From contig JAFGAM010000001.1 of the NCBI GenBank assembly GCA_016933675.1, positions 21,181-85,180 on the forward strand: a stretch of 64,000 nt of DNA, given 5' to 3'. Made by a program: the position numbers and the translations under genes. Source of the stretch: Candidatus Anaeroferrophillacea bacterium. Lineage in GTDB: Bacteria; Desulfobacterota; Anaeroferrophillalia; Anaeroferrophillales; Anaeroferrophillaceae. This document shows, in pieces, positions 22,142 through 62,204 of the stretch (the stretch's first letter is position 1; the number at the start of each line of letters is the position of its first letter). The notes under the pieces were generated by a model, which did not search any database, had not been told where the DNA came from, and worked only from the letters and a program-made list of their open reading frames with translations.

Positions 22142-22164
22142 TTTTTGCGGTACCCGATGGAATC

Positions 22165-43393: not shown

Positions 43394-44644
43394 TTACGGC
43401 GCCATCCCACCGGCGCCGGCATCGGTGCCGGTGCCCTTTCGACCGCCGAACGCCGCCGGCAGGTCCGTCCGCTCCCGCAGGACGGCGAAGGCGGCCAGCA
43501 ACAGGTCGATCTCGGCAGCCGTGTGGGCGGCGCTGAGGCTGATGCGCAGCAGGCTGCCGCCGCCGGGCGCCGCCGGCGGCAGCACCAGGTTGACGTAGAC
43601 CCCTTCCCGCAACAGGGCATGCCACATCCCGAGGGTGGTTTCGGCGTCGGGCAGGAAGACACCGACCACCGGCCCCGGCTCCGGCCCAAGGGCAAAACCC
43701 ATGTCCCGCAGCCCGGCATAGGTACGTGCAGCGTTTTCCCACAGCCGCCGGCGGAGTTCCGGGCGCGCGATCAGCTGCTGCAAGGCGGCGCGGGTGGCGG
43801 CGATGGTACCCGGCGATGGCGAGGCGGTATAGATGTACGGCCGGCTGGCGTAGCGCACCCATTCCAGCTCGGGGCGGGGGCTGACGCAGTAGCCGCCGAT
43901 GTTACCGAGGCTCTTGCTGAAGGTACCGACGATGAAATCCACCTGGTCCAACACCCCGGCTTCCTCGGCCCGCCCCCGTCCCCCCTCCCCCAGCACCCCC
44001 AGGGCGTGGGCCTCGTCCACCATCAGCAGCGCCCCGGCGGCGCGGGTGGCGGCGGTGATTTCGACCAGCGGCGCCCGGTCGCCCAGCATACTGTAGATCC
44101 CCTCGACGATGACCAGGGTATCGGCCACCCGCGAGCCCAGCCGGCGAAGGCGTTTGGCCAGATCGGCGGCATCGTTGTGGCGAAAGCGGATGATATCGGC
44201 GCCGCTCAGCCGGCAGCCGTCGTAGATGCTGGCATGGCAATCGGCATCGATAAGGGTGACATCTCCCGGCGCGGCGAGGGCGGCGATCATTCCCAGGTTG
44301 GCCAAAAAACCGGTGGAGAAAACGATTGCCGACCGCATGCCGTAAAAATCGGCCAGCTCCTCCTCCAGACGGCGGTGGCCGGCATAGCTACCGTTGGCCA
44401 TGCGCGAACCGGTGGTGCCGGTACCCGCCTCCTCCAGCGCCCGGCAGCCGGCGGCAATGCACCCGGCATCGAAGGTCAGCCCGAGGTAGTTGTTGGTACC
44501 CGCCAGCAGCACCGGCCGGCCGTTCATAACCCCGCGGGTGGGGGATTCGAGGCGCTCGAAGGTGGTGGAGAAAGGATCGATCCCGGCAGCGGTGATGGCC
44601 GCACGGGCGCGGCCGACGGTTTCGAGCTTGGCGAAGAGTCCCAT
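43394..44644 (-). CDS. spt: Serine palmitoyltransferase-like alpha-oxoamine synthase (PLP-dependent)
   Basis: GTFSKSLGNIGGY (the PLP lysine context typical of Spt) and LLAGTNNYLGLTFD are present. The N-terminal region resembles Sphingomonas SPT as I recall it. An ATG lies at 44644, and the ORF track uses a TTG at 44653. Confidence 0.8.
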   Translation of the reverse strand: MGLFAKLETVGRARAAITAAGIDPFSTTFERLESPTRGVMNGRPVLLAGTNNYLGLTFDAGCIAAGCRALEEAGTGTTGSRMANGSYAGHRRLEEELADFYGMRSAIVFSTGFLANLGMIAALAAPGDVTLIDADCHASIYDGCRLSGADIIRFRHNDAADLAKRLRRLGSRVADTLVIVEGIYSMLGDRAPLVEITAATRAAGALLMVDEAHALGVLGEGGRGRAEEAGVLDQVDFIVGTFSKSLGNIGGYCVSPRPELEWVRYASRPYIYTASPSPGTIAATRAALQQLIARPELRRRLWENAARTYAGLRDMGFALGPEPGPVVGVFLPDAETTLGMWHALLREGVYVNLVLPPAAPGGGSLLRISLSAAHTAAEIDLLLAAFAVLRERTDLPAAFGGRKGTGTDAGAGGMAP

Positions 44645-44649
44645 ACGCG

Positions 44650-44898
44650 TCAATCTCCCAGCAGTTCGGCAAGACAGGCGGTCAGCTCCCGCACCGTGCG
44701 GATGTCCGCCAGCCGGTTGAGGGGAATGGAGATGTCATACACCTCCTCGAGGGCGTCGACGATTTCCATCACCTTGAGTGAATCGACCGCCAGGTCAGCG
44801 ATCAGATCGGTGGTTTCGGCAATCGCTTCCCGGGTTCCGGTCACGGCGGCGAGAACACCGCGGACGGTTTCAAAAAGGTCGGCACGGTTGTCAGTCAT
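44650..44898 (-). CDS. Acyl carrier protein (dedicated, sphingolipid-type)
   Basis: It is 82 aa with the phosphopantetheine-site motif LAVDSLKVMEIV. It lies directly upstream of spt. Confidence 0.85.
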   Translation of the reverse strand: MTDNRADLFETVRGVLAAVTGTREAIAETTDLIADLAVDSLKVMEIVDALEEVYDISIPLNRLADIRTVRELTACLAELLGD

Positions 44899-45078: not shown

Positions 45079-46101
45079 TCATGAAACATCTCCGGGGATC
45101 GTCCCGAAGCGGCGGCCGCAGTCATCACCCGCCATCAGCCGCAGGCCGTCGAGCAGCCGGATGCGCGGCTCCCAGCCGCAGGCCGCCCGCAGTTCCTGAT
45201 GGCCGCAGACCCAGTCGGGATGATACAGTTCCCGGACCTTGCCGGCGGTCAGCATGGGCCGGCAACCGACGACCAACCGGGCACGGGCGGTGTTGATGCC
45301 GGCCGCCAGTCGCACCACCCGGCGGGGAACATTCAGCCGCAGCACCGGCCGGCGGCGGAAATCCACGCCGCAGCGACGGATATCCTCCCATGCATACCCG
45401 CCGGGGCGGCCGTCGTCAAGGGTAAAGGTGCGGCCCTCGTCGCGTCCCCGGCCATACTCCAGCCAAGCCCGGACCGCCGCCGCGAGGTCACTGACATGCA
45501 ACAGGGAAAGCCGGGCGGCGGCGCCGCCCGGAGCGAACAGAACGCCGCGGGCCAGCCACCGGAGCAACGGTCGGAGTTCACGGTCACCGGGGCCATAGAC
45601 CGCCGGCGGGCGCAAGATGGTGTAGGGGAGATCGGCGAATTCGGTTTCCAGCACCAGTTCGCCGCCGCGCTTGCTGGCGGCGTAGGGAGACAGATGCGGT
45701 TCGCGGGCGGCAAGGGAGGAGATATGGAGCAGCCGGGGACGTTTTACCGGCGGCAGGGAGTGGATAGCCGCCGCCAGTCGCCGGACGCCGTTCTCGTTGA
45801 CCTCCCGGAAATCGTCCGGGGTCAGGCCGCGGGTCGCACCGGCGCAGTGGACCACCATGCGGCAACCGCGGACCAGCCGGACCAGCGCCGCCGCGTCACC
45901 CAGGGTTCCGTTGAGCCAGGCGACGCCGGGCCGATCCTGCCGGCGACCGGCCTTCGCGGGCCGCACCAGAGCCCGCACCGGAAAGCCGCCGCCGGTCAAC
46001 TGCCGAACCACCTCGCCGCCGATAAAACCGGTGGCACCGGTGACGGCGACCGGTTCTTCAGCCTTCGCGGCGAGTCCGGGGATCGTCGCCACCATCACCA
46101 T
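45079..46101 (-). CDS. NAD(P)-dependent epimerase/dehydratase-family reductase (ceramide reductase CerR-like candidate)
   Basis: It has the Rossmann motif VTGATGFIGG and the catalytic motif YAASK. The start is uncertain and overlaps the end of the upstream ligase by about 44 nt. Confidence 0.75.
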   Translation of the reverse strand: MVMVATIPGLAAKAEEPVAVTGATGFIGGEVVRQLTGGGFPVRALVRPAKAGRRQDRPGVAWLNGTLGDAAALVRLVRGCRMVVHCAGATRGLTPDDFREVNENGVRRLAAAIHSLPPVKRPRLLHISSLAAREPHLSPYAASKRGGELVLETEFADLPYTILRPPAVYGPGDRELRPLLRWLARGVLFAPGGAAARLSLLHVSDLAAAVRAWLEYGRGRDEGRTFTLDDGRPGGYAWEDIRRCGVDFRRRPVLRLNVPRRVVRLAAGINTARARLVVGCRPMLTAGKVRELYHPDWVCGHQELRAACGWEPRIRLLDGLRLMAGDDCGRRFGTIPGDVS

Positions 46102-47878
46102 GGCGCGAGGCGCCCGCCGCCGCGGGGTCACCCATGACGGCAGCATCAAAATCCGGATTGCGGCGGAGGAAATCCCGCCGGGCGGTGGTCCGGGAAAGCT
46201 TGCCGGAGGATGTCTGGGGCAGGGTATGGGGCGGCACCAGATCGACGTAGCAGTCAAGCCCGAAGGCCTCGCGCATCAGGCCCCGCAGCCGGTCGATAAA
46301 CCGCAGGCGCTCGTCCTGATCACCCATCCGGGCCTGCACCACCAGCACCACGATCTCCCCCCCGGCGGCATCGACGGAGAAGGCGGCAACATCGCGCATG
46401 CGGATCCCGGGCAGGGTCTCGGCCAGTTCCTCAAGATCCTGGGGCCAGATATTCCGCCCATTGACGATGATGAGATCCTTCTCCCGGCCGGTGATCACCA
46501 GGGTACCTTCGGCAAGGTAGGCAAGGTCACCGGTATTGAGCCAGCCGTCCCCGGGCAGGGCGGCGGCGGTGGCACCGAAGTCGTCAAAATAGCCGTCCAT
46601 GACGCTGGCACCGCGGACATGCAGGATGCCGCAGCGGCGTTCGGGCAGGGTATTGCCGGCCTCGTCGCGGATGGCCACTTCGATGCCGGGAAGGGGCGGG
46701 CCGCAACGGACGAATTCACGGCTCTCGCCGATGACCGCCGCATCCCGCGGCACCGGCACCGACGCCTGCTCCGCCACCAGCCGGGCGGAGGAAACACATT
46801 CGCTTTTGAGCCCGGCGGACAGGGGGGAAAAACTCACTGCCAGGGTGGCCTCGGCCAGGCCGTAGGCGGCGACGAAGGCCTTGGCGGAGAACCCGGCGGG
46901 GGCGAACCGGTCGGCGAAGCCGCGCAGAACATCGGTACGGATGGGCTCGGCACCGACGCCGGCGATGCGCCAGGAAGACAGATCACAGCCGGCGATCTCG
47001 GCCTCCCGCACCCGTCGGGTACACAGGGCATAGCCGAAGGTGGGACTGAAGGAGATGGTGCCCTGGTTGCGCGACACGAGTTCCGGCCAGCAGCGCGGCC
47101 GCAGGGCGAAATCGCGGGTCTTGAGATAATCCACCGAGCGCTGGGTGGCGAGCGGCGCGAGGAGGAAGCCAACAAGACCCATATCGTGATAGAACGGCAG
47201 CCAGGAGATCGAGCGATCATCTTCCCCCACCCGGAGCCCGTAGCGGCCGATGGCCGCAAGATTCGCCATCAGCGCCCGCTGGGAGATCATCGCCCCGCGG
47301 GGCGCGCTGGTACTGCCGGAGGTATACTGGATATAGGCCGGTTCGTCGGCGGCCAGGGGGTCGGGATCTCCCGCCTCCGGCAGGCGGCACAGATCGCCGG
47401 CGGTGCCGACAAAGGTGAGCTCGAGGCCCGCGGCCGCCTCGGCGAGGAACGGCAGAAACTCCGCCGGCGACAGCGCCGCCGCCGCCCGCGATGCCCGCAG
47501 CATGGCGTGCAACTGCCGCACCAGCCGCTGATGACCGCCCAGATGGATGGCCGCGGCCAAGGGCACCGGGACCAGCCCGGCAAACTGGCAGGCAAAAAAC
47601 AGCCGGACGAAATCCGGCTCGGTATCGGCCACCAGGGCGATGTGGGAGCCACGGGGCATCCCGAGGGCGGCAAGACGGCGGGCCAGCACCCGAACGTCAT
47701 CCCCCAGGACGGCATAGGGCAGCACCGCGTCAAGCCCACCGCGGCGGGAATAGAAGCTCATCCCGGTAGCCCCCCCGGCGGCATATTCCAGGGCGTCGGC
47801 CAGCGAGGTGAAATCACCCTGCCGCAACGGTATCCGGCTCGATGTTGGCGCAGGCAATAACATGTTGATTAAACACAT
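46058..47878 (-). CDS. Fatty acyl-AMP ligase / acyl-ACP synthetase (FAAL-type adenylate-forming enzyme)
   Basis: It has AYIQYTSGSTSAPRG and WLPFYHDMGL motifs. Confidence 0.85.
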   Translation of the reverse strand: MCLINMLLPAPTSSRIPLRQGDFTSLADALEYAAGGATGMSFYSRRGGLDAVLPYAVLGDDVRVLARRLAALGMPRGSHIALVADTEPDFVRLFFACQFAGLVPVPLAAAIHLGGHQRLVRQLHAMLRASRAAAALSPAEFLPFLAEAAAGLELTFVGTAGDLCRLPEAGDPDPLAADEPAYIQYTSGSTSAPRGAMISQRALMANLAAIGRYGLRVGEDDRSISWLPFYHDMGLVGFLLAPLATQRSVDYLKTRDFALRPRCWPELVSRNQGTISFSPTFGYALCTRRVREAEIAGCDLSSWRIAGVGAEPIRTDVLRGFADRFAPAGFSAKAFVAAYGLAEATLAVSFSPLSAGLKSECVSSARLVAEQASVPVPRDAAVIGESREFVRCGPPLPGIEVAIRDEAGNTLPERRCGILHVRGASVMDGYFDDFGATAAALPGDGWLNTGDLAYLAEGTLVITGREKDLIIVNGRNIWPQDLEELAETLPGIRMRDVAAFSVDAAGGEIVVLVVQARMGDQDERLRFIDRLRGLMREAFGLDCYVDLVPPHTLPQTSSGKLSRTTARRDFLRRNPDFDAAVMGDPAAAGASRHGDGGDDPRTRREG

Positions 47879-47940: not shown

Positions 47941-49092
47941 ATGATGATGATGATGATGAACAAAACCCTGCACATCACCCCGGTACGCACCCGCCGCCAG
48001 CGGGAACAATTCATCCGCCTGCCGTGGCGGTTGTACCACGGCGATTCCTGCTGGGTTCCGCCGCTACTGGTCGAGCGACGCCGGCATCTGGATCCGCGGC
48101 ACAACCCCTTTTTCCACCACGCCGAGGTCGACACCTGGCTCGCCACTGCCGCCGGCCTCCCGGTGGGGCGGATCAGCGCCCAAGTGGATCACCTGCACCA
48201 GGAACGCTACGGCGACGGCGCAGGGTTCTTCGGCCATATCGACGCCGTCGACGACCCGGCGGTGTTCGCCGCCCTGCTCGAGACCGCCGGCGACTGGCTG
48301 CGGGAACGGGGCATGCGCACCGTCCGCGGCCCGTTCAACTTTTCCATCAACCAGGAATGCGGCCTGCTGGTGGACGGCTTCGACTCCCCGCCGATGGTTA
48401 TGATGGGCCATGCGCCATCCTGGTATGCCGCCCGGCTGGAGGAACAGGGTTTAGCCAAAGCCATGGACATGCTGGCCTGGCGGGTGAACGCCGACTTCAC
48501 CCCGCCGGCCTTCCTCACCCGCATGGCGCCGCGGCTGGCCGGGCGCGTACGCCTGCGTCCGCTGGACAACCGCCGCTTCGACGCGGAACTGGACCTCATC
48601 CGGGAGATCTTCGAAGACGCCTGGCAGGACAACTGGGGCTTCGTCCCCTTCACCGCCGAGGAACTCGATGAGCTAGGCCGCAACCTGAAGTTCCTCGTCC
48701 CCCCCGAGCTGGTCCGGTTCGCCGAGGTAGACGGTGAGCCGGCGGCAATGATGGTGGTGTTTCCCAACGTCAACGAGGCCATCCGGGATCTCGACGGCCG
48801 ACTGCTGCCACTGGGCTGGCTGCGCCTGCTGTGGCGGCTGAAGGTATCCGGCGTCAAAACCATTCGGGTACCGCTGATGGGCGTCCGCCGCCGCCTCCAA
48901 AACAGCCGGCTAGGAGCGGCCCTCGCCCTGATGCTGATCACCTCGTTACAGGAAGAAAGCCTGCGGCGTGGCGTCGAGACCGCGGAGATGTCGTGGATCC
49001 TCGAAAACAACGAGGGCATGAGCCACATCAACGAAGCCATCGGCGGCGTGCCCTACAAGCGCTACCGGATCTACGCCAAGGAACTGCCATGA
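47941..49092 (+). CDS. Large GNAT-fold N-acyltransferase (bacterial ceramide synthase bCerS-like candidate)
   Basis: It is 383 aa with the acyl-CoA-site-like motif RRRLQNSRLGAAL. It is divergent from the spt-acp-reductase-ligase operon. It starts with six consecutive ATG codons. Confidence 0.6.
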   Translation: MMMMMMNKTLHITPVRTRRQREQFIRLPWRLYHGDSCWVPPLLVERRRHLDPRHNPFFHHAEVDTWLATAAGLPVGRISAQVDHLHQERYGDGAGFFGHIDAVDDPAVFAALLETAGDWLRERGMRTVRGPFNFSINQECGLLVDGFDSPPMVMMGHAPSWYAARLEEQGLAKAMDMLAWRVNADFTPPAFLTRMAPRLAGRVRLRPLDNRRFDAELDLIREIFEDAWQDNWGFVPFTAEELDELGRNLKFLVPPELVRFAEVDGEPAAMMVVFPNVNEAIRDLDGRLLPLGWLRLLWRLKVSGVKTIRVPLMGVRRRLQNSRLGAALALMLITSLQEESLRRGVETAEMSWILENNEGMSHINEAIGGVPYKRYRIYAKELP

Positions 49093-49904
49093 ATTCTGCA
49101 ACAATCTTTCGCGCCGTGGTCCTGGCGGGTGACCGCGGTCCCGGCGACCCGGTGGCCCGGGAGGCCGGAACTTCATGCAAGGCCCTGGTCCCCGTCGCCG
49201 GCCGGCCGATGATTTTCCATGTTCTCGACACCCTCCACCGCGCCGCCGCCATCGCCCCCGCACCCCTGGTCTCGGGCAGCGGCGAGTGTTTGCTCGGGCA
49301 GAGCCCGGAACTGCTCCGGCGGCTGGCCGCCGGCACCGTCACCTGGCGGGAGAACGAATCATCTCCAAGCCGCAGCGCCCTGGCGGCATTCACCCAGCTG
49401 CAACAGGAGTACGGGAACGCCCCCGTCCTGCTGACCACCGCCGACCACCCGCTGCTGACCCCGGCGATGGTGGATCATTTCTGCAACCGGGCCGCGGACA
49501 GTGGTCTCGACATCGCCGCCGGAGTGGTACCGGCGACACTGGTTGCCGGGGCCTTCCCGGAAAGCCGGCGCACCGTCACCCGGCTCCGCGACGGCGGCAT
49601 CTGCGGCGCCAACCTTTTCGCCCTGCTGACCCCTCGGGCGGGGCAGGCGCTCTCTTACTGGCGCCGGGTGGAAGCGCAGCGCAAGAGCCCGCTGAAGATC
49701 GTCCGCACCGTGGGGTTCTTCACCCTGCTCAGCTACCTTTTCGGCCGCCTGACCCTGGCCGCCGGCTGCCGGCGGCTGTCGGCAGCCATGGGGGTACGGG
49801 GCGGCACGGTGGAGATCCCCTTCCCCGAGGCGGCCGTCGATGTCGACACCCCCGCCCACCGGCAACAGGCGGAGGAGATTATCGCCCGGCGCCACTCACC
49901 CTGA
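49089..49904 (+). CDS. MobA-like NTP-transferase family protein
   Basis: It has AVVLAGDRG...KALVPVAGRPM, a nucleotidyltransferase N-terminal motif. There is an ATGA overlap with the GNAT gene. Confidence 0.65.
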   Translation: MNSATIFRAVVLAGDRGPGDPVAREAGTSCKALVPVAGRPMIFHVLDTLHRAAAIAPAPLVSGSGECLLGQSPELLRRLAAGTVTWRENESSPSRSALAAFTQLQQEYGNAPVLLTTADHPLLTPAMVDHFCNRAADSGLDIAAGVVPATLVAGAFPESRRTVTRLRDGGICGANLFALLTPRAGQALSYWRRVEAQRKSPLKIVRTVGFFTLLSYLFGRLTLAAGCRRLSAAMGVRGGTVEIPFPEAAVDVDTPAHRQQAEEIIARRHSP

Positions 49905-50077: not shown

Positions 50078-51298
50078 TCATTTTCCGTGCGGCACGGTTT
50101 CAAGGAAGCGACCGTGTTCGTTCAGTTCCTCCAGCCGGCAACTCCACACCAGCCGGCCGTCATGAACGGTGATATCGGGACAACTGTCGCACATGTCCTG
50201 GCGACCGTCGGCCTCGAAGTTCACCGGCTGGATGATCATGAAGGACTGGATATAAGCCGCCTGCAACAGCGCCGCGGGCCGGTCCCGGATCTCCCGGCCG
50301 ATGGCGGCGAGAATCCGGCGGCTGCCGCGGTCGAAAAGGGAACCGGCCAGGGCCTGCAGACGGCCGAGCCGGGTGGCCCGGGGTCTGGCATAGGACAGGT
50401 AGCGGCCGGCAAACAGGTGATTGCCGGTCTGGATGACCTCCATCATCCGCGGCGACATGTAGCCCATCACCTTGCCGTTGTATACCGTCCGACTGGCCAG
50501 CAGCCACTTGAATGAATCGGGGCGGGCGGTACCGTTGAGGTAAGCCGCGGGCTCGTAGGCCGGGTCGGCGACGCGGATCTGCGCCACCGCGTCGGCGGCG
50601 TAGAGGGTATCCTCGCCGCCCCACTCGGGCTCCTCGTAAAGGCTGGTCATTTCCATCCGCTTCCCGCCGGCAAAGTAGTCGAAATCGCCGGCAAGGGAAG
50701 GGGAACGAAAGAGGATGAAAACCATGGTCTGTACCAGCCGGGCGTGTTCCCCGGCCCAGCGGACCATGGCGGGAATCTCGTGCAGATTGTGGTCGCTGAT
50801 GGTGGCGTTGAAGGAGCAGGCGATGTTGCCGGCTTGCCCCAGCATGCGGGCGAAACGCAGCCGGAGATCGTTCAGTCCGGTCTCGGTTTCGACCTGGAAG
50901 TCGGGCCGCTTCTGCGAGGTGTCGATGTGGAAGGTAAAACCATAGACCCCGGCCCGCTTCAGCTCCATCAGGAGCGGATAGTCGAGGGCGACGCCGTTGG
51001 TGTTGACGATGGGCTTCCAGCCCAGGTCACGCACCCGCCGCACCAGTTCGACGATGTGCGGGTACACCAGCGGGTCGCCGCCGGCGATGCTCATGCAGTC
51101 ACTGCGCCGCAGCCGTTTGAAGGTCTCCAGTTCCGCCTGCACCTCGTCGAGGCTCTTGTGTCGCGGGTTGACCTGGCTACGGTAGCAGCCCTTGCAGTGA
51201 AGATTGCAGTAGGTGGTGGGCTCGAGCCACGAGATGCCGTTGTCGGCGTAGTTCCACGGCAGGCGGTAATAGTCCAGGTGATTGAGGGGAGCGGTCAT
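50078..51298 (-). CDS. Radical SAM enzyme of unknown specificity
   Basis: It has the CNLHCKGC cluster motif (CxxxCxxC), the GGDPL glycine motif, and a C-terminal Cys-rich tail CDSCPD...SC. The start is MTAPLNHLDYY. Confidence 0.8.
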   Translation of the reverse strand: MTAPLNHLDYYRLPWNYADNGISWLEPTTYCNLHCKGCYRSQVNPRHKSLDEVQAELETFKRLRRSDCMSIAGGDPLVYPHIVELVRRVRDLGWKPIVNTNGVALDYPLLMELKRAGVYGFTFHIDTSQKRPDFQVETETGLNDLRLRFARMLGQAGNIACSFNATISDHNLHEIPAMVRWAGEHARLVQTMVFILFRSPSLAGDFDYFAGGKRMEMTSLYEEPEWGGEDTLYAADAVAQIRVADPAYEPAAYLNGTARPDSFKWLLASRTVYNGKVMGYMSPRMMEVIQTGNHLFAGRYLSYARPRATRLGRLQALAGSLFDRGSRRILAAIGREIRDRPAALLQAAYIQSFMIIQPVNFEADGRQDMCDSCPDITVHDGRLVWSCRLEELNEHGRFLETVPHGK

Positions 51299-53928: not shown

Positions 53929-54998
53929 ACCTCATCGCCCGCCACATCGCCCGCCGGTTTTTCTTCTGGTGGCTGCTTTGCGGCCTGCTGCTGGTGGGTC
54001 TGTTCTCGCTCTTCGATCTGGCGGCGCAGATCGACGATCTGGAGGCCGGCTACCGCCTGGCGGACGCCCTGCTGTACGTCGCCCTGAAGGTTCCCGGACG
54101 CTTCATCGAAACCGCCCCGCCGGCCATCCTGCTGGCGGGAGTGGCCACTCTGGGCATCATGGCCGAGCACCAGGAGCTGCTGGCATTACAGGCCGCCGGG
54201 ATCGGCACCGCCCGGATCGCGTGGCAGATCGTCAAACCGGCACTGGCGGTGCTGCTGCTGCTCATGCTCGCCGGGCAGTTTATCGCCCCGCCCATGGAAC
54301 AACGGGCGTGGGTCATCCGTGAACAGGGGCGGTCGCAAACCGGGACGTTTTTACCCAACACCGGGTTCTGGGTCCGCCGGGGACGGCAATTCATCAATCT
54401 TCGCCCCGACCGCACCGGCCATGCCGCCGGCCGCGCCATCGAAATCTACCGCTTCGCCGGTGACGGCCGTCTGGAATCCCTGATCCAGGCACCCGAGGTC
54501 TCGCTGGACAACGACAACGAATGGATCCTGCACCGGGCCCGGACCAGGCACTTCGACGGCGGCAACGGCGGAATTATCCGGGCAAGCGACCCCGAAATTC
54601 GGATTCAACCGCCGCTGACCGGCACCGAAACCCGGATATTCAACCTGCCGGCCCGGACCCTGTCGTTCAGTGAGCTGCACGCCCTCATCGGGCGGTTGCG
54701 GGAGCGCCGACAGTATGCCGGCACGTTCCGGACGGTATTCTGGCAGAAGCTCACCCAAGCACCGCTCGCCCTGGCGATGCTGGCGCTGGCATTTCCCTTC
54801 ACCCTCGGGCGGCCGCGGCAGATGGGACTGGGCTGGCGGATCATGGTGGGGGCGGTAACCGGGGTGCTGGGCTATTTCATCCATCAGGTTTTCGTCAACC
54901 TCGGTCTGCTCTGGTCATGGCCGGCGCCGCTCACGGCCATCGTCCCCATCGGGGTTTTCCTTCTCGCCGCACCGCTGCTGCGGCCGCGTCGCGGCTGA
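53925..54998 (+). CDS. lptG: LPS export ABC transporter permease LptG (YjgP/YjgQ family)
   Basis: It starts MNLIARHIARRF and has the same topology as lptF. There is an ATGA overlap with lptF. Confidence 0.8.
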   Translation: MNLIARHIARRFFFWWLLCGLLLVGLFSLFDLAAQIDDLEAGYRLADALLYVALKVPGRFIETAPPAILLAGVATLGIMAEHQELLALQAAGIGTARIAWQIVKPALAVLLLLMLAGQFIAPPMEQRAWVIREQGRSQTGTFLPNTGFWVRRGRQFINLRPDRTGHAAGRAIEIYRFAGDGRLESLIQAPEVSLDNDNEWILHRARTRHFDGGNGGIIRASDPEIRIQPPLTGTETRIFNLPARTLSFSELHALIGRLRERRQYAGTFRTVFWQKLTQAPLALAMLALAFPFTLGRPRQMGLGWRIMVGAVTGVLGYFIHQVFVNLGLLWSWPAPLTAIVPIGVFLLAAPLLRPRRG

Positions 54999-55976
54999 CC
55001 CATGGCGAGGCAGCAGACGGATGGCGGGGGGGATCGCGATAAATCCGCCGGCATGGCAAACGAAACGATACACTGTCTCCTCCAGCTCCCAGGCGGTCGG
55101 CAGCGGGCGCAGCCGATAGCGGGCGATTACCGCCCGGTACGCCCCCGCCCGGCCGCCGGCAGTAGCGGCGGCCAGGCCGCGGACCGGCACCGGACCGGCG
55201 GCCGTATCCAGTTCCCGCTGCATAAGACGATGGGCATGACCGTGCAATACCAGTTCGACGCCGCGGCGGCGCAAAACCGCAAGCAGCTGCACCCCGTCCG
55301 CCAGGCGCTTGCGAGGGCTGACGACATCGGGAAACGGCGGATGATGGAGCAGCACGACACGAAATTTCCCCGCCTCGGCGCCGGCGGCCAGGGCGGTATC
55401 GAGGTCCGTCAGCTGGCGACGGCCCAACCGGCCGAGCGCCAGCAGGGGATTGCCGCCGGCCACGGCCGAAGACAGGCCGATGAACATCACCGGGCCCCGG
55501 ATGCGGACGACAGGAAAGGGATCGACCCCACCGGCAGCCGCGACCGGCGGCGACCGGCGGGCGTCGGAACGGCAGTACGGCAGCCATGCCGGCAGCCCCC
55601 GGACCAGGGATCGGCGGCCGGTGGCATCGTGGTTGCCGGGAATCACGGTAATATCGCCGGGATCACCCAGTCGTGCGAGCCAGGCGGCCGCCTCAAGGTA
55701 TTCCGCCCGCGTCCCGAGACTGGTGAGATCGCCGGTAACGACCGCGTGATCCGGCCGCCGGCGATGCAGCTCCCGCTCCACGGCGGTGAGAACCGCGGTA
55801 TCGTACACGTGGCGACGGCTTAGGTACCAGGCCGGCAGCCCGAGAACCGCTTTGAGGCTCAACTCGTACCATCGCGGTCGGGGCCGGGTGAAATGCGGAT
55901 CGGAAAGGTGGACGAAGGTAAACCCGGGGTTGTCCTCCGCCGCCTGATCCGTTACATGGTGCATTGGCTGATCCAT
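54915..55976 (-). CDS. Calcineurin-like metallophosphoesterase
   Basis: It has the motifs HLSDPH, TGDLT, GNHD, LLHHPP and HGHAH. Its 3' end overlaps lptG convergently by 84 nt. Confidence 0.8.
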   Translation of the reverse strand: MDQPMHHVTDQAAEDNPGFTFVHLSDPHFTRPRPRWYELSLKAVLGLPAWYLSRRHVYDTAVLTAVERELHRRRPDHAVVTGDLTSLGTRAEYLEAAAWLARLGDPGDITVIPGNHDATGRRSLVRGLPAWLPYCRSDARRSPPVAAAGGVDPFPVVRIRGPVMFIGLSSAVAGGNPLLALGRLGRRQLTDLDTALAAGAEAGKFRVVLLHHPPFPDVVSPRKRLADGVQLLAVLRRRGVELVLHGHAHRLMQRELDTAAGPVPVRGLAAATAGGRAGAYRAVIARYRLRPLPTAWELEETVYRFVCHAGGFIAIPPAIRLLPRHGSAATRPQQRCGEKENPDGDDGRERRRP

Positions 55977-56090
55977 AACCCGGGGGAACCCGGCAGTCTC
56001 CGGTATGGTTTTTGCCGAACCATCGGCAGCAGGCCGGAATCGGTGCCGACAGCTCGATTTCGGCATTGTCATCGCCTCGCTGAAACGGCC

Positions 56091-56315: not shown

Positions 56316-57515
56316 ATGATCATGACCCTGAACATCCACCTGTTTTCCGACCCGCCGATAACCCTCTGGGGGCTGTCGAGCCGCGAGCGGCTGTCCCGGA
56401 CGCTGGGTAAAAAGCGGAACATCAACTGGATCTACCGCCTCGATGCCGCCCCACCGGCGGCTGACATGCTCCTGCTGGCGGGCGATTACCTCTACGACCC
56501 CCGGATACCTGAGGCCCTCGTCCGGGCGCCCGACACCATTCTCTACGACGCCCCGCCGGCGGCCGGCGGCCGCCCGACCGCCGCCCACATCTCCGCCGCG
56601 CGACGATCCGAAGTGCTGGGCCACCTGCAGAACCCGGCGACCATACCCGCTCCGGACGGGGTAACATGCCTCACCCCCGCCGAACTGGTCTCCGGATTCC
56701 AGCACCGGCTGCGCAAGATCCAGCCCCCCTATGTCCTGCCGATCACGGTGGAAAACCGCAGACGGCTGGAGAAACTGCTCTTCACCGGCTCCTACAAGGG
56801 GGTAACCGATCTGGTGACCAAGTGGCTCTGGCCGTTGCCGGCCCGCCACGTGACCCGCTGGTGCGCGACGCAAAACATCACCCCCAACCAGGTCACCAGC
56901 ATGAGCCTGGCCATGGTAATCATCGCCAGCCTGTGCTTCTACCACGGCCTCCTCGCCGCCGGCCTGGCGGCGGCCTGGCTGATGACCTTCCTGGACACGG
57001 TGGACGGCAAACTGGCCCGGGTGACGGTAAACTCCAGCACCTTCGGGCATCTCTTCGACCACATCATCGACCTCGTTTCGCCGCCGCTGTGGTACATATT
57101 CTGGGGCATGGGGGTGGAACACCGGCATCCGGACGCCTTCGGCGGCTATCTGGCGCCGCTTCTCTGGCTGCTCATCGGCGGCTACGTCGCCGGCCGGCTG
57201 GTAGAACTGGTGTTCAAACGGTGGCTGGAACCGACGGGAATCTTCTGCTGGCGGCCGCTGGACTCGGTCTTCCGCCTGATCACCGGACGCCGCAACCCCA
57301 ACCTCCTGCTGCTCACCGGCAGCCTCATCGCCGGCCGACCGGATATCGGCCTCCTGCTGGTGGTTATCTGGACCGTCATCTCCAGCATATTTCTCGTCAT
57401 CCGGCTGGAAGTCGGCCGGCGAGAGAAACACGTCGCCGGGGGACTGCGCTCCTGGCTGCAGGACGATACGGTACCGGCATCCCCGCTCATCCGCGGCTGG
57501 TTTACGGACCGATGA
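56316..57515 (+). CDS. CDP-alcohol phosphatidyltransferase family protein with an N-terminal cytoplasmic extension of about 170 aa
   Basis: It has the full signature DTVDGKLAR-x8-G-x3-D-x3-D plus TM helices. The N-terminal domain is unassigned. Confidence 0.85.
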   Translation: MIMTLNIHLFSDPPITLWGLSSRERLSRTLGKKRNINWIYRLDAAPPAADMLLLAGDYLYDPRIPEALVRAPDTILYDAPPAAGGRPTAAHISAARRSEVLGHLQNPATIPAPDGVTCLTPAELVSGFQHRLRKIQPPYVLPITVENRRRLEKLLFTGSYKGVTDLVTKWLWPLPARHVTRWCATQNITPNQVTSMSLAMVIIASLCFYHGLLAAGLAAAWLMTFLDTVDGKLARVTVNSSTFGHLFDHIIDLVSPPLWYIFWGMGVEHRHPDAFGGYLAPLLWLLIGGYVAGRLVELVFKRWLEPTGIFCWRPLDSVFRLITGRRNPNLLLLTGSLIAGRPDIGLLLVVIWTVISSIFLVIRLEVGRREKHVAGGLRSWLQDDTVPASPLIRGWFTDR

Positions 57516-58648
57516 GCGACAACCCGTGCCCGACGTATATTCCGGTTCACCGCCCGGCGAGCCGTTTCCCGGCAACCGTACCGGGGGATGAGTCCCCGGG
57601 GACCGCGCCGCATTCCCTGCATCAACCCTTTACGCCACCGGACACCGCCGCGGGGCCTCCGGCATCACCGGCGGTCTTCCGGCAGGTGGGCGTGCTGACC
57701 AATCCGCGCAGCGGCGGCAATCGCCGTAACGACGGCCGCGTGGCCGGGCTGCTGGCCGCACGGCTGCCCGCCGCCCGGCATGTTCTCGCCCGCACCGCGG
57801 GGGAGATCGAGCACGCCCTGGACGAGTTCCGCCGCGCCGGCATCGACCTGCTGGTGATCAACGGCGGCGACGGCACGGTTCAGGCGGCCCTCACCCACAT
57901 CTACGCCGTCGCGGCACCGGGTTCGTGGCGGCCGGACCTGGCCCTGCTCCGCGCCGGGACCGCCAGTATGCTGGCCCGGGACGCCGGACTTGCCGGCAGT
58001 CCGCCGGCAGCGGCGGCGCAACTGGCGGCGGCACTCACGGAAGGAGGAAAGCCCGGCCGCCTGCACGTGGTTGAACGGCATGTCCTGCGGGTGGAACACC
58101 ACCCCGAAAAACCGCCCCAATGCGGCATGTTCTTCGGCTGCGGTGCCGTCTGCCGGGGCATCGACCTGTGCCACGGCAGCCTCAACCGCGCGGGCATCCG
58201 CGGGGAACTGATGCCCGGCCTGATCATGCTGCGCCAACTTATAGACCTGGCCCGCGGCCGCCCCGACCGCCTGGGCCCGGTGCGGGCCGGGGGCATGATC
58301 GACGCCCGGCCGCTACCGGCATCATCCTGGCTGCTGATCGTCGCCGCCACCCTGCGACGGCTGGTGCTCGGCATGTACCCGTTCTGGGGGACACCGGAAG
58401 CGCCGCTGCACCTCACCGCGATCGAGACCCGGGCGCCGCACCTGCTGCGGCGGGCGGGCCGCATCATGCGTGGTCGGCCAGACGTTTCCATGACGCCGGC
58501 ACACGGTTTCCACAGTGCCGCCGGCAAACGGATGGAACTGGATTTTACCGGCGACTTCACCCTCGACGGGGAGATATACACCGCCGCCGGATCGCTGACC
58601 GCCACTACGACGGGACCGGCGCGGTTCCTGGTCTTCGAACATGGTTGA
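57512..58648 (+). CDS. Diacylglycerol-kinase-family lipid kinase (ceramide/sphingosine kinase-like candidate)
   Basis: It has the motifs LTNPRSGG and LLVINGGDGTVQ. There is an ATGA overlap with the upstream gene. Confidence 0.8.
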   Translation: MSDNPCPTYIPVHRPASRFPATVPGDESPGTAPHSLHQPFTPPDTAAGPPASPAVFRQVGVLTNPRSGGNRRNDGRVAGLLAARLPAARHVLARTAGEIEHALDEFRRAGIDLLVINGGDGTVQAALTHIYAVAAPGSWRPDLALLRAGTASMLARDAGLAGSPPAAAAQLAAALTEGGKPGRLHVVERHVLRVEHHPEKPPQCGMFFGCGAVCRGIDLCHGSLNRAGIRGELMPGLIMLRQLIDLARGRPDRLGPVRAGGMIDARPLPASSWLLIVAATLRRLVLGMYPFWGTPEAPLHLTAIETRAPHLLRRAGRIMRGRPDVSMTPAHGFHSAAGKRMELDFTGDFTLDGEIYTAAGSLTATTTGPARFLVFEHG

Positions 58649-59579
58649 TACGTTGCTCACCCTGGTCCGGCGGGAAGCCGGCAAACCGGTTCCGGCTGCG
58701 GTCCAGACCATCGCCGAAGCCGCCCGGAAACGTCACCGCACCGCGGTCACCGCGGTCATCCATTACGGTTCCTGCCTGCGGCGACCGGAATCCGTCGCCG
58801 CGGGCATCATCGATCTCTACCTGCTGGTCGACAGCTACCGCGCCGCCGGCCTGGGACCGGTATCTGCCGGCGCCTGCCGGCTGCTGCCGCCCAACGTCTA
58901 CTACCTTGAGACGGAACACGACGGGGTTGCCGTCCGCACCAAATACGCCCTCATGCACCGGGACGACTTCTTCCGCGGCACCCGACACTGGTTCCATGCC
59001 TATATTTGGGCCCGCTTCGCCCAGCCCTGCCGGCTGGTGTGGGCAGCGGACGAGGCAGAGCGTAACGTGGTTGCCGCCGCCCTGGCGGAAGCCGTGCAGC
59101 GGTTCATTCGGGAAGTGCAGCCGCTCATGAAGGGACCGTTCAGCGCCCGGGAGCTGTGGCTCGCCGGCTTCGGTCTGAGCTACGGCACCGAGCTGCGTTC
59201 GGAAACCACCGACCGCGGTGCGGAACTCTACGCCGCCGCCGCCGACTACTACGCCGGTGCCGCCCGGGCGGTGCTCGGGCCGCCGCTGCCGGCGGCAGCC
59301 GGCGAAGAACCCCGCCATACCGTGCCGGCACGCGGGCCAATCGCCGCCAGCCGGCGGCGGATCGCCTGGTTCCTGCGCCGCCGGCAGAGCAAAGTCCTCT
59401 CGGTACTGCGCCTTCTGAAGGCGGCTTTCACCTTCACCGACGGCCCCGCCTACCTGATATGGAAGATTCGCCGCCACAATCCGGATATCATCGCCGCCGA
59501 CGACCCGCGCCTGCAACGACCGGTCACGGCCCTGGCGGTACTTATCTGGCGACTCGTGCGGCGGCGTCCCCGCTGCTGA
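58641..59579 (+). CDS. Tam41/Mmp37-like nucleotidyltransferase (CDP-diacylglycerol-synthase-type) candidate
   Basis: Three blocks align by eye to yeast Tam41. HYGSCLRR aligns to GYGSGVF, IIDLYLLV to QIDIVLGV, and NVYYLE...RTKYALMHRDDF...WARFAQPCRLV to GVYFNP...VKYGVVS...LAGRLQKPVKIL. SYGTELR aligns to SYAGDIR. There is an 8-nt overlap with the kinase gene. Confidence 0.55.
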   Translation: MVDTLLTLVRREAGKPVPAAVQTIAEAARKRHRTAVTAVIHYGSCLRRPESVAAGIIDLYLLVDSYRAAGLGPVSAGACRLLPPNVYYLETEHDGVAVRTKYALMHRDDFFRGTRHWFHAYIWARFAQPCRLVWAADEAERNVVAAALAEAVQRFIREVQPLMKGPFSARELWLAGFGLSYGTELRSETTDRGAELYAAAADYYAGAARAVLGPPLPAAAGEEPRHTVPARGPIAASRRRIAWFLRRRQSKVLSVLRLLKAAFTFTDGPAYLIWKIRRHNPDIIAADDPRLQRPVTALAVLIWRLVRRRPRC

Positions 59580-60435
59580 CCGGGCTGCCGGATTCCACCG
59601 CAACGGCCACTTCATCCGCCGCCACCGCTCCTTCCGCAACCCTTCTTTCCGCCCGCCAACGGCTCAGTTTCCGCCTGATCCGGTCGAGCTTGCGCCCCTC
59701 GTCCGGAAAGCTCACCGGCAGCTCCAGGGCCCGTTCCAGTTGTTTGATCGCCGCCGGCCGATCGCCCAGGGCATAATAAACCCGGCCAAGGTAGTAGCGA
59801 TGGATAATCCGGTCATGGATGGCAATGGCCTGCCGCAACAGGTACTCGGCATCATCGAGTGAAGCCGGCGGCAGGCCGCCGGCGAGCCGGACGAAGGAGC
59901 GGACCAGCGGATTGCGGGAGGCGATACGGTAATGCCACAGGCCGAGTACCAACAGCGAGATATCGTCGTCGGGATCGATGACCAAAGCACGGTCGATGAC
60001 TTCGCGTATCTCTCCCGCCCGACCGACGCCAGCGGCGGGACCATCCTCCCCGGCCCGCGCACCGAGGGCAACGGCAAGCCACTTGTACCCCTCGTCATCA
60101 TCAGGATTCGCGGCAATCGCCTGCCGCGCCCGTTCCTCGGCCCGGCGAAACTGTTCCTTCCGCCCGTCCGCGCTGTCAGCCGCCAGTCCCAGCTGGTACC
60201 GCGCCCGGGCCCGACGCCAGAGAACGGCGGCGACAAAATCGTGCGGCCCGGCGGCATCCAGACATTGCAGGGCCGCAACCGCATTGTTTCGTTCCAGCAA
60301 TCGGTCCACCGTCGCGAAATCGCCGCCGGCAACCAGCCCTACCGTTCCGGCCGCCGCCGGCGTGCACCGCACCGGCACTCCGAAACCCAGGAAAACAACG
60401 GACAGCAGCAGCACGATCACCTTCATCCGCCGCAT
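59542..60435 (-). CDS. Exported TPR-like protein
   Basis: It has the signal peptide MRRMKVIVLLLSVVFLGFG and helical repeat-like content. Its start overlaps the stop of the ABC exporter gene. Confidence 0.6.
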   Translation of the reverse strand: MRRMKVIVLLLSVVFLGFGVPVRCTPAAAGTVGLVAGGDFATVDRLLERNNAVAALQCLDAAGPHDFVAAVLWRRARARYQLGLAADSADGRKEQFRRAEERARQAIAANPDDDEGYKWLAVALGARAGEDGPAAGVGRAGEIREVIDRALVIDPDDDISLLVLGLWHYRIASRNPLVRSFVRLAGGLPPASLDDAEYLLRQAIAIHDRIIHRYYLGRVYYALGDRPAAIKQLERALELPVSFPDEGRKLDRIRRKLSRWRAERRVAEGAVAADEVAVAVESGSPVSSGDAAARVAR

Positions 60436-62204
60436 CGCACCTCCGCGGTCAGTTGGCGGCCGGAGGCGGGCGACATGACGCCGCCATCCAGGCACCAGAC
60501 CTCGTCGGCAAGTTCCGCCAGCGCCGGCCGGTGGGAGATGGCCAGCATGGCAATCCGTCCCTTGAGCCCTGTCAGGGTGCGGCAGACAGCGGCCTCACTA
60601 TCCTCATCCAAAGCACTGGTGGCCTCGTCGAGGATAAGCAGCCGCGGTCGGTGAGCGAGGGCCCGGGCGATGGCGATCCGCTGACGCTGACCGCCGGAGA
60701 GTTTGCCGCCGCGTTCACCGACGACGGTATCGAGACCATCCGGCATCCCGGCGATGAACTCCGAGGCCCCGGCCGCCCGCACCGCCGCCTCGACCTCCGC
60801 GGTCGTCACCCCGGGGTTACCGATGATGATATTGTTGCGAATGGTATCGTGGAGCAGCACCGTATCCTGGGGAACATAGCCGATCTGCCGGCGCCAGTGG
60901 CGCAGGTCGATTTCGTCCAGCGGCACCCCGTCAATCAGGACGCGGCCCGCGGACGGCCGCAACAGCCCGGTGAGGAGATCGACCATGGTGGTCTTCCCGG
61001 CCCCCGAGTGGCCGATGACGGTAACCAACCCGCCGGCCGGAATGGTCAGGTCGATACCGGCGAACACGACATTCCCGTCGTAGGCGAAGCTCACCCCGTC
61101 AAGACACACCTCGCGGGTCAGATCAAGCTTCCGGCTGCCCCCCTCACCTTCGCGCAGTCGGTCAGCCTCGGCGATCTTCGCCTGCAGCGACCAGTAGGCA
61201 CTCTCACAGGCACCGAGTTCCTGGTACTGGCGCTGCATCTTGCCCAGCTGGCCGAGAAACCGGGCGAGGAGAAAGGTCAGCATCATCACCGTCGGCAGCT
61301 CCATGGGCCAGATCACCAGGGTGGCAAAGAGGCCGCCGATGACCAGCAGGGTCAGAATCGGCTCCTGCAATCCCTTGAGCGCAGCCTTGCTATATGCCTG
61401 TTTGCGGAGGGCATGGTTCAGTTTGACGGCATCATACTCCAGCAGGCGGTCGGCCAGGTCGTCCCGGCCCATGGACTTGAGCGGCTTCACCGACTGCAAG
61501 CTGTCGACCAGGCGAGCGGCCAGCGATTGCAGCAGTTCGGTCTGCCGCCGTCCGGCGCGCTTGGTCTTGCGCACCAGCCGGCTGAGCACCAACACCACGA
61601 GCACCGCGCCGCCGTAGGCCGCCAGGGTGATCTTCCAGGATACCAGCAGCGCCACCAGACTGTAGACCGCCGCCTGAATGAGATAGGTGATGGTCATGGC
61701 GCCGTAGAGATAGGCCTGGGCCGCCCGCATCACCTCGGTGGCGATGGCGTTGGCCAGCGAACCGATGGGCTGATTGAGAAAATAGGACCAGTCGGAAGCG
61801 ATGAAGGAACGCAGCATGGTGAGCCGCAAATCGGTGGCGACATGGGCCACGGTGTAGCCCACCTTCTTGTCCGCCAGCAGCACGAAAACGCTCTTGACGA
61901 GAATCAGGGTAACGACCACCCCGAGAAGGGAGCCGATGGTCGGAACAATTCCGACAACTTCCAGCGCACGGATAACATGCACCCCGACCCCGTGGTCGGG
62001 CGTGCCGGCGCCGGCTTCCGGAGCGGTGGAAAACGCCAGATTAAGCACCGGCAGAAGGGCTGTAAGGCCGATCCCTTCAACGATGCCGGCCACCATCAGG
62101 GCGGCCAGCATGAATATCGTTCGGGCCGGATAGCGGCGACCGATATGCCAGAGCAAGTGCATGATTTTACTTTTTTTCCTCTCTTCACGCGCCCGTTTCA
62201 ACAA
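60423..62204 (-). CDS. ABC exporter, fused TMD-NBD (MsbA-like lipid flippase candidate)
   Basis: It has six N-terminal TM helices, Walker A GHSGAGKTT, signature LSGGQRQR and Walker B LLILDEATSALD. The start is either TTG at 62204 or ATG at 62162. Confidence 0.85.
   Translation of the reverse strand: MLKRAREERKKSKIMHLLWHIGRRYPARTIFMLAALMVAGIVEGIGLTALLPVLNLAFSTAPEAGAGTPDHGVGVHVIRALEVVGIVPTIGSLLGVVVTLILVKSVFVLLADKKVGYTVAHVATDLRLTMLRSFIASDWSYFLNQPIGSLANAIATEVMRAAQAYLYGAMTITYLIQAAVYSLVALLVSWKITLAAYGGAVLVVLVLSRLVRKTKRAGRRQTELLQSLAARLVDSLQSVKPLKSMGRDDLADRLLEYDAVKLNHALRKQAYSKAALKGLQEPILTLLVIGGLFATLVIWPMELPTVMMLTFLLARFLGQLGKMQRQYQELGACESAYWSLQAKIAEADRLREGEGGSRKLDLTREVCLDGVSFAYDGNVVFAGIDLTIPAGGLVTVIGHSGAGKTTMVDLLTGLLRPSAGRVLIDGVPLDEIDLRHWRRQIGYVPQDTVLLHDTIRNNIIIGNPGVTTAEVEAAVRAAGASEFIAGMPDGLDTVVGERGGKLSGGQRQRIAIARALAHRPRLLILDEATSALDEDSEAAVCRTLTGLKGRIAMLAISHRPALAELADEVWCLDGGVMSPASGRQLTAEVRCGG

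Follow-up and report, generated by a model that had tools for sequence, protein, structure and literature searches.

Introduction

The closest described counterpart of the locus analysed here is a 17-gene region of Caulobacter crescentus, CC_1152–CC_1168 (CCNA_01210–01226), which covers the synthesis of ceramide, ceramide phosphoglycerate (CPG) and ceramide diphosphoglycerate (CPG2) and transport by LptF2/LptG2 (PMC11324152 and its S1 Text); the work on this locus was published in 2022–2026. Here, it is compared with positions 43394–62204 of a window of 64,000 nucleotides (the whole stretch of DNA that was analysed) from Candidatus Anaeroferrophillacea bacterium, contig JAFGAM010000001.1. We conclude, with a probability of roughly 78%, that this region serves the synthesis and export of an anionic outer-membrane phosphosphingolipid and is homologous to the Caulobacter CPG/CPG2 locus.

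The Caulobacter genes for the ceramide part are CC_1162 (Spt), CC_1163 (AcpR), CC_1164 (CerR), CC_1165 (AasR) and CC_1154 (bCerS). CC_1153 encodes a MobA/CofC-like nucleotidyltransferase, CC_1152 (CpgD) an NTP_transferase, CC_1155 and CC_1156 encode LptG2 and LptF2, respectively, and CC_1158 a calcineurin-like phosphoesterase. CC_1159 (CpgA) carries PF01066, CC_1160 (CpgB) is a ceramide kinase and CC_1161 (CpgC) contains a Tam41/Mmp37 domain (IPR015222) (all from PMC11324152). Genetics and lipidomics showed that CpgB makes ceramide-1-phosphate, that CpgC is needed for CPG and that CpgA is needed for CPG2 (Zik 2022, PMC9393093). CPG2 also needs CC_1152, CC_1153 and, partly, CC_1158 (PMC11324152), and CpgD is a CTP:phosphoglycerate cytidylyltransferase (Dhakephalkar 2025, PMC12275187). 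LptF2 and LptG2 occur together in a complex and bind LptB; their genes tolerate deletion only in the absence of spt, and LptC2 is confined to Caulobacter (Uchendu 2026, preprint 10.64898/2026.04.12.717747).

Gene content and comparison with the Caulobacter locus

Genes were called from codon-position GC and then with Pfam and NCBIfam profiles. Because the GC content of the window is 58–70%, the raw lists of open reading frames (ORFs) are crowded, and with codon-position GC a single clear gene stands out in each stretch. In this way 16 contiguous lipid and envelope genes are placed in 43394–62204; a convincing 17th gene was looked for in the same interval and not found. The features are as follows (window positions, strand, product and match).

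43394..44653, minus, spt, serine palmitoyltransferase (NCBIfam NF047599; Pfam Aminotran_1_2)
44650..44898, minus, dedicated acyl carrier protein (ACP), AcpR-like, ~82 aa from an internal Met (PP-binding, 48 bits)
45079..~46101, minus, CerR-like NAD(P)-dependent reductase of the epimerase/dehydratase family, start uncertain (Pfam Epimerase, NAD_binding_10)
46058..47878, minus, AasR-like fatty acyl-AMP ligase (FAAL)/acyl-ACP synthetase (NCBIfam NF006624)
47941..49092, plus, bCerS-like N-acyltransferase, 383 aa (sub-threshold GNAT; conserved position)
49089..49904, plus, MobA/CofC-like nucleotidyltransferase, CC_1153-like (Pfam NTP_transf_3, 55 bits)
50078..51301, minus, radical S-adenosylmethionine (SAM) enzyme, Tes/GDGT-MAS-like; the ORF reaches 51382, with Met28 as the probable family start (Pfam Radical_SAM)
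51477..52292, minus, CpgD-like cytidylyltransferase, LicC/COG1213 type (Pfam NTP_transferase, NTP_transf_3)
52293..52794, no strand, intergenic region of ~500 bp between the divergent cpgD–radical SAM and lptFG units
52795..53928, plus, LptF-family permease, LptF2-like, with the ORF open from 52585 (TIGR04407)
53925..54998, plus, LptG-family permease, LptG2-like (TIGR04408)
54915..56072, minus, calcineurin-like metallophosphoesterase, CC_1158-like (Pfam Metallophos, 51 bits)
56316..57515, plus, CpgA-like CDP-alcohol phosphotransferase whose N-terminal ~190 aa form a soluble domain (PF01066)
57512..58648, plus, CpgB-like lipid (ceramide) kinase (Pfam DAGK_cat, PF00781, 46.8 bits)
58641..59579, plus, CpgC-like Tam41-fold nucleotidyltransferase, 312 aa (homologues with PF09139; fold)
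59542..60435, minus, exported tetratricopeptide repeat (TPR) protein (Pfam TPR_11, RMD1-3)
60423..62204, minus, ATP-binding cassette (ABC) exporter with fused membrane and ATPase domains (Pfam ABC_membrane, ABC_tran)

The window shares with Caulobacter four ceramide genes and a candidate for the fifth, bCerS, the cpgA–cpgB–cpgC operon, a LicC-type cytidylyltransferase as the putative CpgD, counterparts of CC_1153 and CC_1158 and an LptF/LptG pair inside the locus; the MobA/CofC-like nucleotidyltransferase and the phosphoesterase match their Caulobacter counterparts at the domain level only. LptC2 (CC_1168), the glycerophosphotransferase-like CC_1167, the HIT protein CC_1157 and the Wzx-like flippase CC_1166 belong to Caulobacter and are absent from the window locus, whereas the Tes-like radical SAM enzyme, the ABC exporter and the exported TPR protein are found in the window and not in the Caulobacter locus. 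The host of the window also differs from Caulobacter in being an anaerobe-type deltaproteobacterial metagenome-assembled genome (MAG).

An earlier note on this DNA, made from the letters alone, had announced seventeen consecutive genes between 43394 and 62204. All of the genes that it names lie where it placed them; their number is 16, as in its own list. The boundaries that it drew are borne out by the unrelated housekeeping genes proC (42243–43298) and nadA (62470–63402) on either side, and the deltaproteobacterial host that it proposed agrees with the record of an identical 312-aa protein in a MAG labelled Deltaproteobacteria bacterium. Two of its statements are not supported. It knew of no described head-group pathway matching the genes beyond the ceramide block, but these fit Caulobacter cpgA–D, CC_1153, CC_1158 and lptF2/lptG2 by domain and largely by order. 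It also took the host group as one not classically associated with sphingolipids, but homologues of CC_1161 in delta-proteobacteria were noted by Olea-Ozuna 2024 (PMC11324152) and metagenomes of the Black Sea have led to the proposal that Desulfobacterota produce sphingolipids (PMC11334938).

Conservation of the gene set

Relatives of CpgC, the Tam41-like protein, were sought in one genome per GTDB species and are present in at least 594 species genomes. The best 80 of these at least 594 are mostly from Desulfobacterota and Kiloniellaceae, with some from Gammaproteobacteria, Nitrospirales and Calditrichota and none from Caulobacter, and the gene set is syntenic across the five groups. Related loci are referred to below by L numbers. 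An exhaustive profile search for CpgC-like relatives gave 666 clusters (50% identity) with E ≤ 1e-30.

Partners were counted by tblastn with the window proteins in 35 loci that have the Tam41-like gene at their centre and span 18 kb or more. The kinase is present in 32/35 loci, the phosphoesterase in 30/35, the MobA-like nucleotidyltransferase in 29/35, the bCerS-like (GNAT-like) protein in 28/35, the CDP-OH transferase in 27/35, LptF in 25/35, the NTP_transferase in 24/35, the FAAL in 22/35 and Spt in 17/35. Because the partners recur in these related loci, the grouping of the 16 genes is not due to chance. Three neighbourhoods, from Pelagibius (Alphaproteobacteria), a complete 5-Mb genome and a Deferrisomatales MAG, contain the same set: bCerS-like protein, MobA-like nucleotidyltransferase, NTP_transferase, metallophosphoesterase, LptF and LptG, together with CDP-OH transferase, DAGK, Tam41-like protein, Spt, ACP, reductase and FAAL. 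In two loci of Alphaproteobacteria, L002 and L003, cpgA–cpgB–cpgC is followed by a convergent spt–acp–cerR–aasR unit, which is the order of CC_1159–CC_1165. The co-occurrence and synteny of the partners support the whole 19 kb as one system, as had been tentatively proposed for this stretch from the outset.

The ceramide module

Spt scores 595.5 bits against the serine palmitoyltransferase equivalog NF047599 (cut-off 500) and stays under the cut-offs for bioF (323 bits; cut-off 426), kbl (298 bits; cut-off 460) and ALAS. Reassignment of the gene to bioF or kbl was checked by this profile scoring and the assignment as Spt stood, and with it the Caulobacter-type ceramide block recognized in the earlier note. 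The ACP falls under every housekeeping ACP cut-off in NCBIfam and adjoins spt, as it does in L002–L004. The CerR-like reductase (Pfam Epimerase, 79 bits) lies between acp and the FAAL gene and is assigned at the level of domain and position only; homologues with 39–52% identity hold the same position in related loci. The FAAL scores 753.7 bits against NF006624 (cut-off 600).

The bCerS-like protein gives a sub-threshold GNAT match (E = 0.053, residues 219–343); no curated family exists for bCerS, and a search of the PDB returned no relative of the protein. It is conserved at 43–64% identity beside the MobA-like nucleotidyltransferase in 28 of the 35 loci, and the same pairing is seen in Caulobacter as CC_1154/CC_1153.

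An ORF of ~177 aa that is MarR-like by eye occurs at most 2.5 kb upstream of bCerS in L006, L021, L033, L041, L043, L052, L061 and L084. It is not in the window and is a possible dedicated regulator. In the Deferrisomatales MAG, genes for a CMP-sugar synthetase (CTP_transf_3), NeuB and a UDP-GlcNAc 2-epimerase follow directly downstream of spt (L004:12073–15048), which may mean that a nonulosonic-acid decoration is tied to the sphingolipid locus.

The radical SAM enzyme

The radical SAM gene lies downstream of the CpgD-like gene on the same strand. Its family is tight (62–91% identity, ~406 aa) and contains CxxxCxxC and five further invariant cysteines. The best PDB match of the family profile is the archaeal tetraether lipid synthase GDGT-MAS/Tes (PDB entry 7TOL, E = 1.2e-12), the next structure being at 1e-5. 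For a predicted model with a predicted local distance difference test (pLDDT) score of only 77, Foldseek gives full-length matches to 7TOL and 7TOM alone (444–451 columns, query TM-score 0.56–0.59), and the other radical SAM structures cover the core only, with query TM-scores of at most 0.40. The enzyme scores 47.8 bits against the Tes equivalog NF045702, for which the cut-off is 450, and by this score is not a Tes orthologue. It shares with Tes and with bacterial Mss the radical SAM CxxxCxxC motif, further invariant cysteines and a lipid-related context, but differs from Tes in sequence (~15% identity), in length (~406 versus ~500 aa) and in having fewer candidate auxiliary-cluster cysteines, and the adjoining genes are those of sphingolipids or of lipid A acyltransferases and not of ether lipids.

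Outside the window, 12 other loci have the gene beside homologues of CpgB/CpgC or bCerS/CerR; it adjoins cpgB/cpgC in L006, L014, L055, L061, L065, L071 and L084. Six contexts were retrieved via the radical SAM protein itself. Of these, L087 and L089 are sphingolipid clusters, and in L088 the partners of the enzyme are an LpxL-like acyltransferase and a homologue of bCerS (36% identity). A 752-aa protein (P0240; L085:2359–4617 and L086:3152–5410) consists of a short-chain dehydrogenase/reductase (SDR) of the epimerase/3-beta-hydroxysteroid dehydrogenase type fused to the radical SAM enzyme, and its gene lies directly downstream of one for a separate SDR that is CerR-like (31% identity to the CerR of the window, E = 8e-17). 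The SDR half of the fusion was considered as a CerR in its own right and rejected, as it shows no specific likeness to CerR (E = 0.09). An LpxL-like neighbour is again present in L090, and L091 has no lipid neighbour.

The Lip_A_acyltrans (LpxL-like) genes beside the radical SAM gene are located at L088:8811–9755, L089:10441–11298 and L090:5137–6066. This recurring neighbour hints that the enzyme may act on the acyl chains of outer-membrane lipids more generally. L089 (a contig of JGI 3300005254) is a variant ceramide cluster with a sulfotransferase gene between the CpgD-like and radical SAM genes; the cluster is followed by genes for the LpxL-like acyltransferase, an ArnT-like PMT_2 protein, glycosyltransferases, a Kdo kinase and a heptosyltransferase, and sphingolipid and lipopolysaccharide (LPS)-core genes are therefore interleaved.

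All of the radical SAM carriers observed belong to anaerobe-type lineages. In aerobic Pelagibius-type loci an O2-dependent FA_hydroxylase is encoded directly upstream of bCerS (L002:1–503, L003:1–283), and this place is taken by the radical SAM gene in L055. Clustering of the ORFs upstream of bCerS gave no support for a positional replacement of the FA_hydroxylase, in which the radical SAM enzyme would be an anaerobic substitute; it returned the MarR-like ORF and CpgD.

It is unlikely that the gene travels with the cluster as an unrelated passenger, encoding for instance a maturase of cofactors or peptides and playing no role in lipid chemistry. Its presence in only six of 44 well-covered loci, its absence from Caulobacter, the homologue in L091 without lipid neighbours and the scores of the NCBIfam NirJ2/AhbD models, which recognize the enzyme as well as the Tes model does (51 versus 48 bits), would suit a passenger. 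On the other side, four of the six contexts retrieved via the protein adjoin sphingolipid-gene homologues, the LpxL-like acyltransferases are adjacent in L090 and L088, a homologue is fused to an SDR beside a CerR-like SDR and the sole full-length fold match of the predicted model is GDGT-MAS, an enzyme that couples lipid tails.

A role in lipid chemistry can be worded more specifically, although at odds that we place clearly below even: Tes/GDGT-MAS-like radical SAM enzymes of anaerobic Desulfobacterota and their relatives may be part of the ceramide/phosphoceramide machinery and carry out oxygen-independent chemistry on sphingolipid chains. In the literature library that was searched, no paper was found to link radical SAM enzymes with bacterial sphingolipids, and ceramide is absent from a 2026 review of radical SAM enzymes that modify lipids. 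Surveys of the Black Sea count Tes/Mss homologues of Desulfobacterota as potential for tetraether lipids of the branched glycerol dialkyl glycerol type (brGDGTs; PMC11868695), and the present family may contribute to those hits.

The head-group module

The CpgA-like protein contains PF01066 at residues 188–255 and hydrophobic segments at residues 195–220, 282–300 and 337–367. Its architecture is the one published for CC_1159, with an N-terminal cytoplasmic domain, PF01066 and three transmembrane helices. The best PDB match of the CpgD-like protein is LicC (PDB entry 1JYK, E = 4e-14). The residues R27, N100, M155, K169 and W211 do not vary among 33 homologues and, in a mapping by spacing and not by alignment, correspond to R16, N90, M147, K161 and W201 of Caulobacter CpgD, which contact CTP, Mg-bound waters and C2 of glycerate (PMC13228409). 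The spacing of M155, K169 and W211 suggests that the CpgD-like enzyme would be specific for phosphoglycerate.

A different CDP-activated alcohol as the head group, such as CDP-inositol made by the NTP_transferase and attached by the CDP-alcohol transferase to yield an inositol-phosphoceramide-type lipid, is highly improbable. This route is suggested by weak matches of the NTP_transferase to IPCT/DIPPS (NF041135, 61 bits) and of the CDP-alcohol transferase to archaetidylinositol-phosphate and phosphatidylinositol-phosphate synthases (46 and 40 bits), and the IPCT structures 2XME and 4MND are among the PDB matches of the CpgD-like protein (E ~1e-5). The scores are far under the respective cut-offs of 580, 180 and 170 (the transferase reaches 39 bits against NF041135), which reduces the initial description of the protein as 'IPCT-like' to a weak superfamily match. 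LicC-type enzymes outscore IPCT, no inositol-phosphate synthase gene is seen in the window or the annotated loci, the glycerate-contacting residues of CpgD appear to be conserved in the NTP_transferase and a CDP-inositol route needs neither the kinase nor the Tam41-like enzyme.

For the phosphoglycerate route, the co-occurrence of the CpgA-like and CpgD-like genes can be read from the 44 well-covered loci: both are present in 27, CpgA alone in four, CpgD alone in none and neither in 13. This fits a pair consisting of a CDP-glycerate donor synthase and its transferase. The 13 loci without CpgA and CpgD resemble the CPG-only state proposed for Zymomonas and may end at CPG or at another head group. 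One sub-type (L006, L014, L061, L071, L084 and L087) combines the kinase, the Tam41-like protein, the phosphoesterase, the MobA-like nucleotidyltransferase and the radical SAM enzyme without CpgA and CpgD, and four of the 13 loci carry the radical SAM gene.

Many CpgC homologues at 40–48% identity carry PF09139 (Tam41_Mmp37), and for a profile of 24 family members Tam41 is the sole significant PDB sequence match (6IG2, E = 7e-5). The AlphaFold2 model of the CpgC-like protein (pLDDT 86) has only Tam41 among its top five Foldseek matches (probability 1.0, TM-score 0.52–0.60), and the initial recognition of the protein as Tam41-like is thus upheld by homologues, profile and fold. Like Tam41/Mmp37 (PF09139; PDB entries 6IG2, 6IG4 and 7ECD), it combines, in the modelled fold, a nucleotidyltransferase with a winged-helix domain. 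The family-invariant residues K101, Y121/W123/R125/F126/Q128 and Y181/E184/L185/R186 lie in the stretches aligned with Tam41, and K101 and the motifs Y121-x-W-x-RF-x-QP and SY-x-x-ELR are common to both families. Tam41 makes CDP-diacylglycerol. It differs from CpgC in sequence (12–15% identity) and in its substrate, which is phosphatidate for Tam41 and presumably ceramide-1-phosphate for CpgC.

In P0291, a 662-aa protein from a representative search, DAGK_cat (residues 19–127) is fused to a CpgC (Tam41-like) domain (residues 354–660). This is consistent with consecutive steps of kinase and CpgC, and could also be a gene-calling fusion of two overlapping genes. A literature search on CDP-ceramide, and on bacterial ceramide with Tam41, returned no papers. 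The idea of a nucleotide-activated ceramide is not new, as Olea-Ozuna 2024 (PMC11324152) already suggested an intermediate in which ceramide is activated as a nucleoside diphosphate (NDP) derivative; the Tam41 fold and the kinase–CpgC fusion give structural support to this published idea for CpgC.

The transport genes

LptF scores 274.6 bits against TIGR04407 (cut-off 230) and LptG 278.3 bits against TIGR04408 (cut-off 240). The least probable of the alternatives, in which lptF, lptG and the genes for the ABC exporter and the TPR protein serve ordinary LPS or envelope export and are merely adjacent, the 19 kb being two or three independent units, draws on the passing of these generic LPS-permease equivalogs, on the restriction of the TPR gene to the nearest relatives and of the ABC gene to 7/35 loci and on a view of further lptFG copies that is limited to the 64-kb window, against which stand the position of lptFG inside the cluster in the 25 loci, from several phyla, the binding of LptB by the locus-encoded LptF2/LptG2 of Caulobacter together with their deletion only without spt (preprint 10.64898/2026.04.12.717747) and the location of the ABC gene beside spt in four loci.

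The ABC exporter remains under the equivalog cut-offs for MsbA (TIGR02203, 259.9 versus 602 bits) and HepA (295 versus 725 bits), and has in common with MsbA/HepA-type exporters the half-transporter architecture of ABC_membrane and ABC_tran. The four loci in which homologues (45–49% identity) immediately adjoin spt on the same strand, in an operon-like arrangement, are L026, L036, L039 and L075; L039, from Desulfoprunum benzoelyticum DSM 28570, has the full cluster but no radical SAM gene. We infer that the exporter is a candidate sphingolipid flippase, a role that the unrelated Wzx-like CC_1166 may fill in Caulobacter. The TPR protein has a single N-terminal hydrophobic segment that resembles a signal peptide (residues 20–47 of the ORF), and among the 35 loci its gene is found in the closest relatives L001 and L005 only.

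Other features of the region and the window

The start of the MobA-like nucleotidyltransferase gene overlaps the bCerS stop by 4 nt. The genes cpgA–cpgB–cpgC form a tight operon in which the cpgB ATG overlaps the cpgA stop and the cpgB stop shares an 8-nt overlap with the start of cpgC. Convergent 3' overlaps are present between lptG and the phosphoesterase gene (84 nt, 54915–54998) and between cpgC and the TPR gene (38 nt, 59542–59579); the starts or ends of these genes may need rechecking, or transcription from the opposite strand may interfere. A convincing ORF was sought in 52293–52794 and not found. Among the sigma-70-like matches in the region, the best one (TTGACA-17-TACTAT, 52600–52572, minus strand) falls inside this intergenic segment, but the scan of the region for promoters and terminators gave results that were overall not above those for shuffled sequence. 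An Rfam scan of the window gave no match.

The remainder of the window consists of housekeeping genes, including tsaD, a sigma factor, folE2, plsY, hslUV, an xerC-type recombinase, tonB, rluD, murJ, argJ, secA, nadK, recN and the gene for a CCA-adding enzyme. Two genes of the FapA family (flagellar assembly protein A-like) are located at 21940–23961 and 31749–33497, the first of which matches the N-terminal FapA domain alone. A TPR protein gene at 18640–19389 (minus strand), unrelated to the lipid locus, adjoins an RluD-type pseudouridine synthase gene at 17586–18602 (minus strand), and this pair at 17586–19389 may be the usual bamD–rluD arrangement.

Discussion

Several points weigh against the assignment as a CPG/CPG2-type locus. 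The system and its probable head group are deduced here from the genes, and orthology with Caulobacter is drawn from domains, gene order and synteny and the literature, not from direct alignment; the same holds for the CpgD residues, which are mapped by spacing only. The bCerS-like protein matches no family profile at threshold, and the CpgC-like protein itself scores 14.1 bits against PF09139, under the Pfam gathering threshold of 24. Whether lptFG is a lipid-specific second copy is viewed from the 64-kb window only. Because the locus lacks LptC2, CC_1167, CC_1157 and the Wzx-like flippase and has three extra genes, its product may differ from CPG2.

If the Caulobacter work is carried over, AasR would load a fatty acid onto the dedicated ACP and Spt would join the ACP-bound acyl group with serine. 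The product would be N-acylated by bCerS and reduced by CerR to dihydroceramide. As proposed here, the Tes-like radical SAM enzyme may alter the lipid's hydrocarbon moiety in an oxygen-independent way. CpgB would act as ceramide kinase, by homology, and CpgC would most likely activate ceramide-1-phosphate with a nucleotide (NDP-ceramide) en route to CPG, as the Tam41 fold and the kinase fusion suggest. CpgD would form CDP-glycerate from CTP and phosphoglycerate, and CpgA, with contributions from the CC_1153 and CC_1158 counterparts, would add the second phosphoglycerate to give CPG2. The ABC exporter, in place of the Wzx-like CC_1166 of Caulobacter, may flip the lipid across the inner membrane, and LptF2/LptG2, powered by LptB, would take it out of this membrane.

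The core of this system is already described. The window version has this core in a different phylum, together with a non-orthologous candidate flippase and a conserved extra radical SAM enzyme. The tie between a Tes-like radical SAM enzyme and ceramide genes is the one new lead, which points to an undescribed sphingolipid modification in anaerobes and bears on the assignment of lipid biomarkers to their producers. If the enzyme does work on sphingolipid chains, it would be the first of the radical SAM class with such a substrate. In the boldest form C–C coupling of chain ends would lead to macrocyclic or membrane-spanning sphingolipids, and milder forms would be methylation, desaturation or hydroxylation. 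Some of the 'Tes/Mss homologue' hits from which brGDGT producers in anoxic waters are deduced would then belong to sphingolipid loci.

In Caulobacter, anionic sphingolipids of the CPG2 type allow survival without lipid A and are the target of colistin. Synteny of this locus extends to hundreds of species well beyond the Alphaproteobacteria, including many anaerobic Desulfobacterota, Nitrospirales and Calditrichota. Outer membranes in anoxic environments may therefore commonly contain anionic sphingolipids that are exported via an Lpt-type route.

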